Source: Bryobacteraceae bacterium
GTDB taxonomy: Bacteria > Acidobacteriota > Terriglobia > Bryobacterales > Bryobacteraceae
DNA: 64,000 nt
Assembly (NCBI GenBank): GCA_947458745.1
Contig: CANGYQ010000014.1
Location: 61,084 to 125,083, forward strand
Direction: 5' to 3'
Positions 5,213-8,743 of the stretch are shown here, piece after piece; positions within the stretch are counted from its first letter, which is position 1, and every line of letters starts with the position of its first letter. The position numbers were made by a program, and so were the translations under genes. The notes below the pieces were generated by a model. The model did no database searches and was not told the origin of the DNA. It worked only from the letters and a program-made list of their open reading frames with translations.

Positions 5213-6445
5213 CTAGCCCTCAAGCGAGTGGGTGTGTTCTTCACTCACCACCACGACGCCGTTCTCCGTGACCGTGTAGCCGCGCGAGCGGTCGGCTTCG
5301 GGATCCATGCCTAACTGAGTGCCTTCGGGCAGGACGACGCCGGTATCGATGATCGCGCGCTTAATGCGGCTGCCGCGGCCCACCCAGACGTTGGGCATCA
5401 GGATGGAATCCTCTACCTCGCAATAGCTGTTGACGCGGACGCCGGGCGATAGCAAGCTGCGGACCACGCGGCCGCCGGAAACAATGCAACCATGGGCGAC
5501 GATGGAATCGACGGCCACCCCCATGCGCTGTCCCTGCTGGCCAAAAACGAATTTGGCCGGGGGATTCAGGCTCATGTGGGTGCGGATGGGCCAGGCCCGA
5601 TCGTAGAGATTGAACTCCGGCGTTACTTTCACCAGATCCATGTTCGCTTCATAGAAAGCGTCAATGGTGCCGACGTCGCGCCAGTAGTGGGCACTCTTGC
5701 CGTTGAGGTCGCGGAAGTCATAGGCCACAACCTTGCTCCGCTGGACGAGGCGCGGGATGATGTCTTTGCCGAAATCGTGGGATGAGTGCGGGTCGTCGGC
5801 ATCTTCGAGCAATGCCTTCAGCAGAATGGGCGTGGAGAACAGGTAGACGCCCATCGAGACGGAGACTTTGTCGGCATTGAAGATACTGCGCGTGGGATGG
5901 TCATGCTTGGGCTTTTCCTCAAAGCTCCGGATGCGGTAGTCGGCATCGATGGCGGCGACTCCGAAATGGACCGCCTCGGCGGGGTCCACCTGGATGGTGG
6001 CGATAGTGAGGTCCGCTTGCTGCTGCCGGTGCCAGTTGAGCATCTCGGCGTAGTTCATCTTGTAGATGTGGTCGCCGGAAACGATCAGCGTAAACACCGG
6101 GGCTTCGGCGATGATCGATTCTATGTTCTGATAGACCGCGTCGGCGGTGCCCAGATACCAATCGGAATGGATGCGCTTCATGGGCGGCACCACTTCGATG
6201 AACTCGCCCATGGAGGAGGAGAAGATGCTCCAGCCGTCGCGGATGTGGCGCGACAGTTCCAGCGATTTGTACTGCGTCAGGACGAAGATGCGCCGGATGT
6301 TGGAGTTCACGCAATTGGAGAGCGTGAAGTCGATGATCCGGTAAATGGCGCCGAACGTAACAGCCGGTTTCGCCAGATTGCGCGTCAGGGGTGATAGCCG
6401 TTCGCCGGCCCCACCCGCCAGAAGAATCGCCAGGACGTTTTCCAT
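5213..6445 (-). CDS. glgC: glucose-1-phosphate adenylyltransferase
   Basis: 'LAILLAGGAGERLSPLTRNLAKPAVTFGAIYRIIDFTLSNCVNS' is the ADP-glucose pyrophosphorylase N-terminal signature, and the C-terminus has beta-helix repeats. Start set at MENV (6445); the 61 extra upstream codons of the track ORF are not protein-like. Confidence 0.9.
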   Translation of the reverse strand: MENVLAILLAGGAGERLSPLTRNLAKPAVTFGAIYRIIDFTLSNCVNSNIRRIFVLTQYKSLELSRHIRDGWSIFSSSMGEFIEVVPPMKRIHSDWYLGTADAVYQNIESIIAEAPVFTLIVSGDHIYKMNYAEMLNWHRQQQADLTIATIQVDPAEAVHFGVAAIDADYRIRSFEEKPKHDHPTRSIFNADKVSVSMGVYLFSTPILLKALLEDADDPHSSHDFGKDIIPRLVQRSKVVAYDFRDLNGKSAHYWRDVGTIDAFYEANMDLVKVTPEFNLYDRAWPIRTHMSLNPPAKFVFGQQGQRMGVAVDSIVAHGCIVSGGRVVRSLLSPGVRVNSYCEVEDSILMPNVWVGRGSRIKRAIIDTGVVLPEGTQLGMDPEADRSRGYTVTENGVVVVSEEHTHSLEG

Positions 6446-6484
6446 CCTTCTTGATTGTCCCAGGCTTGCAGGCCGGCGGGGCCC

Positions 6485-6514
6485 TTGCATCGCCGCGGGG
6501 AACTGGCGTATAGT
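6485..6514 (+). promoter_or_regulatory. sigma70-like promoter TTGCAT-N18-TATAGT
   Basis: TTGCAT at 6485-6490, 18-nt spacer, TATAGT at 6509-6514. Lies in the divergent glgC / DAHP-synthase spacer. The -10 element ends 9 nt before the leader-ORF ATG. Confidence 0.5.
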
Positions 6515-6523
6515 AAAAGCGCT

Positions 6524-6583
6524 ATGCGCGCCTTTTATGGCAACTCGTTTCGATTTTGGTCCTGGTATTCGCCTGGGCCCTGA
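6524..6583 (+). CDS. candidate leader peptide MRAFYGNSFRFWSWYSPGP (19 aa, 7 aromatic codons)
   Basis: Hand translation: atg cgc gcc ttt tat ggc aac tcg ttt cga ttt tgg tcc tgg tat tcg cct ggg ccc tga. It has 3 Phe, 2 Tyr and 2 Trp codons. It sits between a promoter and a terminator hairpin upstream of DAHP synthase. Too short for the ORF track. Confidence 0.5.
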   Translation: MRAFYGNSFRFWSWYSPGP

Positions 6584-6619
6584 CGAGTAGCGCATCCACC
6601 GATTCGCACTATTCCTCAA

Positions 6620-6658
6620 GCGGCCCACTCAGCAAAGAGTTGGGCCGCTTTTGTTTTT
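6620..6658 (+). terminator. intrinsic terminator in the 5' leader of the DAHP synthase gene (attenuator candidate)
   Basis: GCGGCCCA (6620-6627) / TGGGCCGC (6641-6648) with a 13-nt loop, followed by TTTTGTTTTT (6649-6658). No plus-strand gene lies upstream to terminate. It is about 40 nt before the DAHP synthase start. Confidence 0.6.
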
Positions 6659-6697
6659 GCCGGACAGATTTCTTGATCGAAGGAGTTGGGACAAATT

Positions 6698-7750
6698 ATG
6701 GTGATCTCCCTGAAGAGACATGCGACTAAAGAGCAGATCGAAGAGGTTTGCGACCGGATTCGCGATTTTGGCTACAAGATTCATGCCAGCGAAGGCGCAG
6801 AGCGCGTCATCATTGGCGCCGTTGGCGTAGGCGATGTGTCGCACTGCCTGGATTCGCTGCGCGCGATGCCTCAGGTGGAGAAGGCGGTGCGGATTTCGGC
6901 ACCCTATAAGTTTGTCAGCCTCGAATACAAGGAGAGCCCCACCGTGGTCCGCATCCCGGTTGTCCGCGGCTCTGCCATTGAGATCGGCGGCGATGATTTC
7001 ACGGTGATGGCCGGCCCGTGCTCAGTGGAGAGCGAAGCGCAGATCATGCAGTGCGCCGAGGAAGTGGCCGCGGCCGGCGCGCGCATTCTGCGTGGTGGCG
7101 CGTTTAAGCCGCGCACGTCGCCCTACGACTTTCAGGGCATGGCCGAGGAAGGCTTGAAGCTGCTGGCCAAGGCGCGCCAGCATACCGGTCTGGCGATCGT
7201 CACGGAAGTGATGTCGGACCGGGATGTGCCGCTGGTGGCGGAGTACGCCGACATCCTGCAGATTGGCGCGCGCAACATGCAGAACTTTGCACTGCTGAAG
7301 GAACTGGGCACCTGCGGGCGCCCGATTCTGCTGAAGCGGGGCTTAAGCTCGACGATCAAGGAGCTGTTGATGTCGGCCGAGTACATCGTCGCGCATGGCA
7401 ACCCGAACGTGATGTTGTGCGAGCGGGGCATCCGCACCTTTGAGACCGCGACCCGCAACACCTTCGACATCTCGGCCGTACCGGTGCTGAAGGAGTTGAC
7501 GCATCTGCCCATCATCCTCGACCCTAGCCACGCCACCGGCAAGCGGAGCCTGGTGCCGCCGCTGTGTCGCGCCGCAGTAGCAGTGGGTGCCGATGGCATC
7601 ATCATCGAGATGCATCCGCACCCGGAAAAGGCCGTCTCCGATGGTGCACAGTCACTGGACTTCAACCAGTTCAACACCATGATGCGCGACATCCAGCCGT
7701 ACGTAGCGCTGTGGCGCCAGAGCCGCGAAAGCATGCTGGCCCTGGCCTAA
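6698..7750 (+). CDS. aroF: 3-deoxy-7-phosphoheptulonate (DAHP) synthase, type I-beta with N-terminal ferredoxin-like regulatory domain
   Basis: Core motifs '[16 protein letters not shown]', '[16 protein letters not shown]', 'CERGIRTFE' and 'DPSHATG' belong to the DAHP/KDO8P synthase TIM barrel. An extra N-terminal domain of about 70 aa is present. AGGAG at 6681-6685 precedes ATG 6698. Confidence 0.85.
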
Positions 7751-7825
7751 GCCCGGGCGGTGAGGGTGTGGGAAGTGGCGGGAGCCAAGGTGGGCGCAAC
7801 AGCCTGCTAAGCTACGAATAGCGTG

Positions 7826-8743
7826 ATGCGCCTTGGACCTTGGAGTCTCGCTACTTTGCTCATCCTGCTTTGCCTAGCAGTGGGCGGTGGCATTTTCTAT
7901 TTTCGGAGCGCGGACATGCCAGTCCATGAGCTGGCGCGTTACCTGCCGGCCAAAGACGCGGTCGTGATCTCGATTGACGTCAAGTCACTGCGCTCAGCGG
8001 GACTGCTGGAGGCGTTGGCGGGATCCCGTGTCACCGAGGAAGCCGACTATCGCTCCTTCGTCGATATTACTGGCTTTGACTACCGCACCGATCTGGACGC
8101 GCTCCTGTATTCCTCCAGCAACGGCAACATCTATCTGCTGGCGTCGGGCCGGTTCGATTGGAACGCCATCACCAGCTATGCCAGCGGGCAGGGCGCATCA
8201 TGCCGGTATGCTTTTTGCCGGATGCGGTCCAGCCAAGCGGGCAAGTGGCTTTCATTTTTCCCTTTGCGGTCGAACGTAGTGGGTTTTGCGGTGTCGTCGG
8301 ATGAGTTGGCGGCTTTGGAATTGCAGAAGCAATCGGATCCGCTGCCCGCCGGGGCGTTCGCCGATCAGGCCTCGATTGCCGTGCCCGCGCGGCTGTTTAA
8401 GGCCGATGCCACGGATGTGCCGGCCAGCCTATCGCCTTGGTTTAAGTTGCTGGCGGGTGCTCAGTCCGCCCGCTTTGCGATGGGGATGCGCAACGGCGAT
8501 TTTGAGATTAAGATGCGGGTGGAGTGCCCGTCAGCACAATCAAGCGCCAGCGTCGCCCAGCGATTGAACGAGGGTCTGCGGCAACTGCGCGAGGCTTCAC
8601 CGGGGCCTGAAGGAGACGCCCCGGTGACGGGTCTGCCGCTGATGCTTTCGCGCGGAGACGTCAAGCAGGAAGACCGCGCGGTGGTGGCCACCTGGTCCGT
8701 GAATCAGGGACTAGTCGAGTCTCTGCTAAGCGGCCGGATCTAG
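7826..8743 (+). CDS. hypothetical membrane-anchored protein
   Basis: N-terminal TM helix (LATLLILLCLAVGGGIFYF) and GC3-rich codon usage. No motif recognised. Confidence 0.55.
   Translation: MRLGPWSLATLLILLCLAVGGGIFYFRSADMPVHELARYLPAKDAVVISIDVKSLRSAGLLEALAGSRVTEEADYRSFVDITGFDYRTDLDALLYSSSNGNIYLLASGRFDWNAITSYASGQGASCRYAFCRMRSSQAGKWLSFFPLRSNVVGFAVSSDELAALELQKQSDPLPAGAFADQASIAVPARLFKADATDVPASLSPWFKLLAGAQSARFAMGMRNGDFEIKMRVECPSAQSSASVAQRLNEGLRQLREASPGPEGDAPVTGLPLMLSRGDVKQEDRAVVATWSVNQGLVESLLSGRI

Follow-up and report, generated by a model that had tools for sequence, protein, structure and literature searches.

In the trpL and pheL leaders of Escherichia coli (Rfam RF00513, Trp_leader, and RF01859, Phe_leader), region 1 of the leader RNA lies within a short open reading frame (ORF) that carries the control codons, region 2 lies near the stop codon, and regions 3 and 4 form the terminator. 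A stalled ribosome frees region 2 to pair with region 3, and a ribosome at the stop codon blocks region 2. One leader may serve more than one amino acid, as the ilvGMEDA (Leu, Val, Ile) and thr (Thr, Ile) leaders of enterobacteria mix codons of several end products. For DAHP synthase, the first committed step of the shikimate pathway, a leader-peptide attenuator was reportedly described by Neshat et al. in 2014 in the aroR-aroF system of Corynebacterium glutamicum. According to passages of two articles (PMC11802643; PMC4046766), the aroR leader peptide (Phe-Tyr-Phe) precedes the DAHP synthase gene aroF, ribosome stalling raises transcription of the operon under Phe limitation, and Tyr supply is reported to be without effect. 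A passage of PMC4046766 describes the ilvB leader peptide of the same species as made without a ribosome-binding site, and a passage of PMC11802643 places the DAHP synthases of E. coli under the TyrR and TrpR repressors. Here we describe a candidate leader-peptide attenuator upstream of a DAHP synthase gene of a Bryobacteraceae bacterium (phylum Acidobacteriota), found in a stretch of 64,000 nt from contig CANGYQ010000014.1 (positions 61,084 to 125,083 of the forward strand; hereafter the window). From sequence comparison and folding models, we put the probability that it controls the DAHP synthase gene as a ribosome-mediated transcription attenuator of the trpL/pheL type at about 0.82. Computation supports the elements themselves, their conservation, a constraint of the translation type on the ORF, and the alternative pairings together with where they lie. 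We add by inference the start of transcription, its termination at the U-tract and its response to amino-acid supply.

In the window, a spacer of 252 nt separates a divergent glgC-like gene on the minus strand (5213-6445; a nucleotidyl transferase of the GlgC type by Pfam) from the DAHP synthase gene on the plus strand (6698-7750). Because the glgC-like gene is divergent, no plus-strand gene ends in the spacer. Pfam (DAHP_synth_1, E = 2e-82; DAHP_snth_FXD, E = 1.5e-18) and the orthologues assign the enzyme to type I-beta with an N-terminal ferredoxin-like domain, and a Shine-Dalgarno-like GAAGGAG (6679-6685) precedes its start codon. On the plus strand of the spacer, a -35-like hexamer TTGCAT (6485-6490) is followed after 18 nt by a -10-like hexamer TATAGT (6509-6514), and 9 nt further the ATG at 6524 opens a 19-codon ORF, MRAFYGNSFRFWSWYSPGP, that ends with the TGA at 6581-6583 (6524-6583 with the stop codon), 114 nt ahead of the DAHP synthase ATG. 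Seven of its codons specify Phe, Tyr or Trp (F4, Y5, F9, F11, W12, W14 and Y15), and its Phe and Tyr codons are without exception TTT and TAT, the rarer forms. Next come the arms of a terminator hairpin, GCGGCCCACUC (also written GCGGCCCACTC; 6620-6630) and GAGUuGGGCCGC (also written GAGTtGGGCCGC; 6637-6648), with the loop AGCAAA between them and one bulged U in the 3' arm. The U-tract TTTTGTTTTT (6649-6658) stands directly after the hairpin and is the expected site of premature 3' ends. An earlier note on this DNA had proposed the attenuator from these elements, and both hexamers, the ORF at 6524-6583 and the hairpin with its U-tract at 6620-6658 are indeed present; the terminator, which the note placed about 40 nt before the DAHP synthase gene with no upstream plus-strand gene to terminate, ends 39 nt ahead of it, and the gene upstream is the divergent glgC-like gene.

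The ORF and the terminator are each exceptional within the window. When short ORFs of 12-40 codons were collected in six frames (517 started by ATG, 1,762 with any start), the leader ORF had the highest aromatic density in either set, with 7 aromatic codons per 12-codon stretch as compared with 5 in the runner-up and an aromatic share of about 8% in the long ORFs. For terminators, we collected T-rich 10-mers (at least 8 T) on both strands (128 kb of sequence) and folded the sequence upstream of each with RNAfold. There were ten such 10-mers, and the sole strong hairpin with a U-tract on either strand of the 64 kb was that at 6620-6658, with -22.1 kcal/mol (-20.2 kcal/mol when folded in the pairing analysis, hence a range of -20 to -22); the runner-up site reached -12.7 kcal/mol, and its hairpin did not abut the T run. 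Because this both-strand scan found one strong site, the only canonical intrinsic terminator of the window lies in a 5' leader without an upstream gene. A strict perfect-stem scan found no terminator in the window, and a consensus terminator scan reported only the inner part of this one, since the loop and the bulge of 6620-6648 break the rules of such scans. Canonical intrinsic terminators seem to be rare in this genome. The hairpin motif was found nowhere else in the window or in the flanks of the related loci; in the DNA examined it occurs once per locus, always before DAHP synthase, and therefore gives no sign of a wider regulon.

The same arrangement is widespread among relatives. A protein-guided scan with one genome per species gave 80 loci, in which the close ones (56-77% identical) carry the labels Bryobacterales, Bryobacteraceae, Solibacteraceae, Terriglobia or Acidobacteriota. 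When the upstream regions were read, 18 of the 23 close loci had the same layout ahead of DAHP synthase: a TAnnnT hexamer, an ATG or GTG at a distance of 7-11 nt, and an F/Y/W-rich ORF of 14-27 codons with a core near TTT-CGA-TTT-TGG (F-R-F-W), then a CGAGUGG- or CGAGGGGC-like element at or near the stop codon, and finally a terminator of the form CCCACUCG-loop-CGAGUGGG-Un. Metagenome contigs, when scanned, yielded 19 further leaders, and other metagenome scaffolds carried the exact protein of the window together with an identical leader. The closest relatives, reached through a protein index (n = 7; enzymes 80-83% identical, mostly with the same glgC synteny), had the leader in 7/7 cases, with the consensus peptide M-R-x-[FY]-Y-A-N-S-F-R-F-W-[FY]-W-[FY]. 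Altogether we obtained 43 distinct homologous leader ORFs upstream of orthologous DAHP synthases (enzymes 56-83% identical), mostly from Bryobacterales/Terriglobia assemblies and soil metagenomes. Phe, Tyr and Trp are all present in 41/43 of them, and aromatic residues account for 34% of the leader residues. A strict automatic detector, requiring within 350 nt of the gene a 10-40 codon ORF in which 5 or more codons of a stretch of 12 are aromatic, and then a perfect-stem terminator, was positive in 33/153 upstream regions and in 0/153 reverse complements. The conservation of a short F/Y/W-rich ORF with a hairpin and U-tract, which the earlier note had named as the way to check its proposal, is therefore borne out by the 43 leaders, by the contrast with the reverse complements and by all seven of the closest relatives, and these comparative data support a leader-peptide attenuator on DAHP synthase in an acidobacterium-like genome.

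Among the individual parts, the terminator is kept in all leader-bearing relatives, with the core CCCACUC/GAGUGGG; in the window the CCCACUC core lies in the 5' arm (region 3, 6620-6630) and is nearly invariant in the family. The distance from the U-tract to the gene start is 11-40 nt in most members and 11-27 nt in many, and this stretch contains the Shine-Dalgarno sequence. There is thus no room for a separate promoter, and the gene would have to be transcribed through the terminator. As for the promoter of the leader, which the earlier note had called good, the two hexamers with their 18-nt spacer are there and recur in relatives, TTGCAT or TTGCNN standing 17 nt ahead of TAnnnT in loci such as L001, L004, L006, L017 and L022. 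A consensus promoter scan of the window did not call the promoter, as TTGCAT matches TTGACA in only 3/6 positions.

Several features of the leaders point to selection on their translation. Aromatic triplets make up 34% in frame and 8% and 6% in the other two frames; internal stops occur in frame in 0/19 leaders, and in the other frames in 6/19 and 7/19. The motif [FY]-R-F-[WST] is conserved, its Arg being encoded mostly by CGA and also by CGG, CGC, CGT and AGA, and in the alignment the aromatic positions swap among F, Y and W, sometimes S, between close relatives. From the end of TAnnnT to the start codon there are 6-12 nt in 41/43 leaders. This frame-specific enrichment, the open frames, the synonymous variation of Arg and the steady spacing from the -10 hexamer to the start all point in the same direction. 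A -10-like hexamer only 6-12 nt from the start codon, with no space for a Shine-Dalgarno sequence, also implies a leaderless or nearly leaderless mRNA, as far as can be read from the sequence. Codon choice in the leaders also leans to codons read by wobble: Phe is encoded by TTT in 99/130 cases, as compared with about 27% in the long ORFs of the window, and Arg by CGA in 49/114, as compared with about 9%, counts that come from related sequences and hence do not represent independent events. Attenuators such as the leu leader are known to be sharpened by control codons that are decoded slowly.

The leaders also carry a predicted terminator/antiterminator switch. In 18/19 genome-derived leaders, the best partner of the terminator 5' arm was found at -23 to +21 nt of the leader stop codon. 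The antiterminator duplexes are of -14 to -26 kcal/mol, comparable with terminator hairpins of -15 to -24 kcal/mol, and their mean z is -2.5 relative to shuffled upstream sequence. They fall into two classes. In the first, GAGUGG-N-GUUGG directly after the stop codon pairs with CCAAC-CCACUC; in the second, GCGAG-GGGC within the last codons pairs with GCCC-a-CUCGC, extending into the terminator loop. Pair counts were made on fixed-length, motif-anchored segments joined by artificial AAAA linkers that carry no pairs; these segment alignments replaced a plain MAFFT alignment of 19 whole leaders, in which three rows had the CGATTT block out of register. Of the cells in the antiterminator helix, 84.6% and 76.0% were paired in the two classes, as compared with 28-48% when partner columns were slid. 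One locus, L006, has a matching change in all three strands: CCCGCUC in the 5' arm, GAGCGGG in the 3' arm and GAGCGG in the upstream arm. Apart from this, compensatory changes are scarce (one pair goes from UA to CG in L017, a terminator-loop pair goes from GC to CG in L002 and L003, and an outer pair is CG, UA or GC), and we regard the covariation as supportive, not decisive. When the leaders were folded with a ribosome footprint masked, the probability of the antiterminator in most relatives was high with the A site at the aromatic codons and dropped at the last codons and the stop codon.

A further helix completes the scheme. RNAalifold on the eight closest sequences returned two helices, namely the terminator and a 12-pair helix of ACGCCAACUCGUU with GACGAGUGGUGU at the stop codon (columns 16-28 with 61-72). 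These correspond to the classical 1:2 plus 3:4 'off' conformation. Consistent with such alternative pairings, regions 1 and 3 have CCA/CACUCG in common, and regions 2 and 4 have CGAGUGG in common. The earlier note had described a terminator and an antiterminator; to these has to be added an anti-antiterminator (region 1) within the ORF, which gives the full set of four segments.

In the window, this switch appears in a derived form. The position of 6582-6593 reads GACGAGUGGYGU in L163-L168, which is complementary to the CCACUCG of the terminator 5' arm; in the window the alignment places here GACGAGUAGCGC, a decayed copy of the canonical antiterminator arm CGAGUGGYG in which the pairing with region 1a is retained. 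The window and L169, another Bryobacteraceae assembly, share the derived state: of the canonical region 2 only decayed forms are left, CGAGUAG in the window and CGAGCGC in L169; the stem of the terminator is lengthened (GCGGCC...GGCCGC) with a bulged U, and the last sense codons contain a complementary GGGCC. The region 2 of the window is thus GCCUGGGCC (6571-6579), in the last sense codons, whose UGGGCC (6574-6579) would be the 5' arm of the antiterminator. This UGGGCC has two alternative partners, either region 1b or the GGCCCA at 6622-6627. Region 1a, ACUCGUU (6543-6549; codons N7-S8-F9), pairs with GACGAGU (6582-6588) as the outer helix of the anti-antiterminator, and region 1b, GGUCCUGGU (6558-6566; codons W12-S13-W14), forms the 5' side of the hairpin in which region 2 is sequestered. 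In the minimum-free-energy fold of the window, 6543-6549 pairs with 6582-6588 and, inside this helix, 6558-6566 pairs with 6571-6579, concealing UGGGCC. The counterpart hairpin of L169, GGUUCCGG/CCGGGGCC, has changes on both arms. The antiterminator hexamer that the earlier note had picked out is therefore truly complementary to GGCCCA, but it is a derived solution common to L169 only, the family at large using CGAGUGG or CGAGGGGC at or just after the stop codon. By its position, the TGGGCC of the window is placed where the logic of the family needs an antiterminator arm.

The energetics of the window were examined by constrained folding with a ribosome footprint of 28 nt. Without a ribosome, the terminator fold was at -53.3 and the antiterminator fold at -40.2 kcal/mol. 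With the A site at F9 the two were at -39.8 and -36.7 kcal/mol, at F11 at -36.4 and -34.4 kcal/mol, and at W12 at -39.3 and -37.1 kcal/mol; at W14, Y15 and the stop codon, the antiterminator is sterically blocked and the terminator forms. Stalling at F9-W12 thus lowers the bias towards termination from 13.1 kcal/mol to 2-3 kcal/mol in this model, and in kinetic terms the antiterminator is ahead, its partner being the first to be transcribed. In transcripts without the 3' arm, the 5' arm had a probability of upstream pairing of about 0.55 as long as the A site was no further than S13; the value was 0.29 with the A site at W14 and did not exceed 0.1 between Y15 and the stop codon. The region 6515-6665, whose folding the earlier note had suggested, folds better than expected by chance, with z = -3.7 relative to dinucleotide shuffles.

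Putting these elements together, we propose the following sequence of events. Transcription would start about 7 nt past TATAGT, so that the mRNA begins at or within a few nucleotides of the AUG and is translated without a Shine-Dalgarno sequence. Two mutually exclusive folds would then be open to the leader RNA. By default, region 1 (6543-6549 and 6558-6566) would pair with region 2 (6571-6579 and 6582-6588), the terminator would be free to form, and transcription would stop before the gene. When Phe-, Tyr- or Trp-tRNA is scarce, a ribosome would stall at F9, F11 or W12, where it melts region 1 but stops short of region 2, which lies about 17 nt from the control codons, a distance similar to that in trpL. 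The UGGGCC of region 2 could then take GGCCCA before the 3' arm is made, and RNA polymerase would continue into the gene. When charged tRNAs are ample, the ribosome would reach the stop codon and cover region 2, and the terminator would form. Because the leader mixes Phe, Tyr and Trp codons, lack of any one end product should open the common first step of the pathway.

Several observations weigh against such an attenuator, or against parts of it. Some concern the window itself, in which the canonical antiterminator arm has decayed. The TGGGCC:GGCCCA pairing alone (6 bp plus extensions; RNAduplex, -13.9 kcal/mol) was no better than with shuffled upstream sequence (z = +0.2). In the ensemble of transcripts without the 3' arm, upstream pairing of the 5' arm had a probability of 0.47 with no ribosome at all, near the value of about 0.55 with a stalled one, and the anti-antiterminator is hence not decisive there. 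Two of the seven aromatic codons, W14 and Y15, lie too near region 2 for inducing stalls. Others concern the family. The leader is absent in about one quarter of the close orthologues. Most antiterminator pairs are invariant and covariation is thin, and the control with slid partner columns is biased, as the structures came from the same sequences. The drop of the antiterminator probability at the stop codon was incomplete in L002, L006, L008, L013 and L017, and the synonymous-site invariance of AACUCGUUUCGAUUUUGG is only partly accounted for by the 1:2 pairing.

The last point leads to the alternative that survives best, namely that the short ORF acts through its nascent peptide, with [FY]-R-F-W causing ribosome arrest, in the manner of TnaC, when it senses free aromatic amino acids, or that a ligand or protein binds the UUUCGAUUUUGG RNA. 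The R-F core is kept through synonymous Arg codons; Arg is over-represented, with 13.7% of residues in the 43 leaders, and CGA-TTT occurs in 33 cases; Arg beside aromatic residues recurs in the leaders of Terriglobales-type and Gemmatimonadota loci described below. In eight sequences whose enzymes are about 80% identical, an 18-nt block, AACTCGTTTCGATTTTGG, which lies in the 6548-6559 region of the window, is invariant at synonymous sites. The 1:2 helix accounts for its ACUCGUU part and leaves the CGAUUUUGG part unaccounted for, so that this nucleotide conservation is explained in part by the helix together with a preference for slow codons. Outside the core, however, the peptide varies in sequence and in length (14-27 residues), its aromatic residues swap freely, and the core itself varies (YPFW, GFGFW, YRYW, WYCFW). 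What is conserved is the position of the stop codon relative to the antiterminator, with no fixed peptide length. Nor is there an Rfam match to a riboswitch or a protein-binding leader: the search of 6300-6800 gave no match at E <= 10, amino-acid leaders, riboswitches and T-box included, and 13 acidobacterial, Gemmatimonadota and unassigned relatives gave none at gathering score, the sole matches on 18 relatives in total being a T-box in a Firmicute orthologue and a tRNA. We therefore consider a purely peptide- or ligand-driven device very unlikely. A related idea, doubtful as it is, would add to attenuation without replacing it: the Arg-Phe core (mostly slow CGA, then UUU) and the 18-nt block could be a module for programmed slow decoding or nascent-peptide arrest. 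If so, the module might coordinate the ribosome in time with RNA polymerase while the transcript is a leaderless one, or, like TnaC, detect free aromatic amino acids from within the exit tunnel. Attenuation here would then be a hybrid of tRNA sensing and peptide sensing, common to Bryobacterales, Terriglobales and perhaps Gemmatimonadota.

It is very unlikely that the hairpin is a partial terminator that is constitutive or regulated otherwise (through RNA polymerase speed, ppGpp, or NusA/NusG), with an ORF that is untranslated or irrelevant. Three loci lacking the leader would fit this idea, for in L009 (about 2400-2480), L018 (about 820-880) and L081 (about 500-560) a promoter-like -10 hexamer is followed by a CCCACUC/GAGUGGG hairpin and a U-tract with no ORF between them, and the antiterminator of the window is statistically weak. 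These three hairpins may be decayed attenuators or represent another use of the hairpin. Against an irrelevant ORF, the frame-specific aromatic codons, the open frames and the synonymous variation indicate selection on translation, the antiterminator arm keeps its place with respect to the stop codon, and the reverse-complement control gave 0/153.

It is highly improbable that the promoter, ORF and terminator stand by themselves as a small gene, one for a small RNA or a 19-residue peptide with a function apart from DAHP synthase, whose gene would then be transcribed separately. The unit does have promoter-like elements of its own, a strong terminator and a conserved peptide core. Yet the gap that follows the U-tract, 39 nt in the window and 11-27 nt in many relatives, contains the Shine-Dalgarno sequence and is too short for a promoter besides, the unit was found before DAHP synthase only and once per locus in the DNA examined, and a mimic of the terminator arm at the stop codon would be purposeless in a free-standing gene. 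Chance coincidence of ORF, hairpin and pairing is effectively refuted, for even though the TGGGCC:GGCCCA duplex alone does no better than shuffles, neither the ORF nor the terminator has an equal in the window, and their combination recurs in 43 distinct relatives and in none of the controls.

We thus favor ribosome-mediated attenuation, and compare the element with the known systems on that basis. It would work like trpL, pheL and aroR but is in no curated family, and it is distinguished by its three-amino-acid leader, its probable leaderless start and its wide conservation in Acidobacteriota. Like aroR-aroF, it places a short leader peptide with aromatic codons before a DAHP synthase gene. 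Unlike aroR-aroF, which belongs to Actinomycetota, has a reported control tract of F-Y-F only and was compared by description with no sequence relation detected, 41/43 acidobacterial leaders combine Phe, Tyr and Trp; the acidobacterial enzyme is of type I-beta with a ferredoxin-like domain. It shares with trpL and pheL the placement of the four regions and the logic of the stalled ribosome. Unlike these leaders, it would regulate the common first step of the pathway and not a terminal branch, it would sense three amino acids, and its mRNA is probably leaderless whereas theirs have a Shine-Dalgarno sequence. In serving several end products of a shared pathway from one leader, it resembles ilvGMEDA and thr, from which it differs in pathway, phylum and sequence. 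The polycysteine leaderless short ORFs of mycobacteria sense amino-acid supply through ribosome stalling and act on translation (Canestrari et al., bioRxiv 10.1101/834739). They have in common with the acidobacterial leaders a leaderless first cistron rich in codons for the end product, but the hairpin and U-tract here point to transcription termination. Finally, the T-box of the Firmicutes performs the same task with another device, reading uncharged tRNA directly without a leader ORF; one such T-box (RF00230, 130.9 bits) was found before the orthologous DAHP synthase gene of a Halothermotrichaceae assembly (L024, 2202-2448).

Two other candidates were rejected. Reading the leader revealed no TRAP-like (G/U)AG repeats. 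An A-rich tract upstream of the terminator that could pair with the leader UUUUGG is better read as the usual A-/U-tract extension of the stem, and is not present in the window.

Attenuators ahead of DAHP synthase operons have been predicted before, in Vibrio (aroF-tyrA), in Thermus thermophilus (a I-beta DAHP synthase gene followed by tyrA) and in Bacteroides (PMC1173090). In the passages of that article concerned, these are database predictions that include I-beta enzymes; leader peptides are not described there and none of the cases is in Acidobacteriota. According to a passage of a 2010 survey, almost none of the acidobacterial predicted attenuators had an associated function (PMC2965389). 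In open-access literature text, we found no description of such a leader in Acidobacteria. The earlier note was not aware of any described attenuator of this kind: the acidobacterial family indeed appears to be undescribed, but leader-peptide attenuation of DAHP synthase as such is already known from aroR-aroF of C. glutamicum.

Besides the family described above, a second type of aromatic leader was found before the DAHP synthase gene in the Terriglobales-like loci L039 (about 2310-2450), L040, L046, L050, L120, L121 and L137. Its peptide is of the form MTRF[ST]..F..GRYWF.. (for example MTRFTYFVSSFGCYSFRVAAPTER...), and its terminator, GCCGCGAU-loop-AUCGCGGC-Uttt, is preceded by a GCGGC-containing mimic of the 3' arm. 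In two Gemmatimonadota loci (L048 and L059; 200 nt before the gene), the ORFs MHMHTRGYRYYRFAPM... and MPSPARRYRTYWYTLL... begin directly behind a promoter-like TTGACA-N17 site, and GC-rich hairpins come after them; their motifs are YRYYRF or YRTYWY, and the U-tract of L059 is weak. Judged from these sequences, the same strategy may exist in a second phylum. Among more distant orthologues, L142 (about 1025-1200), L061 and L062 (Bacillota) and L112 have aromatic-rich short ORFs (MDLRHLWSWWFYFSG..., MGFYQFGWYRVDY...) beside terminator-like hairpins, which could be due to chance or be further leader types.

Two loci without the leader, L020 and L107, are organized differently, as the DAHP synthase gene follows the 3' end of another ORF that ends ...HPWEYSFYVDF... 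This end looks like the ACT domain of a prephenate dehydratase, and the ORF would be another aromatic gene. In place of the leader, the spacer (150 nt before the gene) contains an inverted array of short repeats, CCCATAAGTCCCATAAGTCCC, or GGGAGTGATGGGA with TCCCATCACTCCC.

In the window, the gene after DAHP synthase (7823-8743) encodes a 306-residue protein with a hydrophobic N-terminus and without a Pfam match, and a protein of about 300 residues is also encoded after DAHP synthase in 7/7 of the closest relatives. This gene may be co-transcribed and co-regulated with DAHP synthase. The leader peptide was also considered as a precursor of a peptide made by the ribosome and modified after translation (RiPP), and this was rejected as no modifying-enzyme genes adjoin, the neighbors being the glgC-like gene, DAHP synthase, the protein without a Pfam match and a pfkB kinase.

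The mechanism proposed here is a textbook one and, with the Corynebacterium precedent, will be satisfying more than surprising to a specialist. Nevertheless, the leader ORF and the terminator deserve annotation, for otherwise the spacer seems empty and the terminator seems to belong to no gene. With the attenuator, the first committed step of the shikimate pathway would itself be controlled, and a single leader would combine Phe, Tyr and Trp codons; a second layer, allosteric feedback, is probably added by the ferredoxin-like domain of the enzyme, after the example of the Thermotoga enzyme. The element also suggests that Acidobacteriota can translate leaderless mRNAs and make regulatory use of this. 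Gene regulation in Acidobacteriota, which are abundant in soil, has hardly been studied, and the DAHP synthase leader provides a concrete, widely conserved and testable case.

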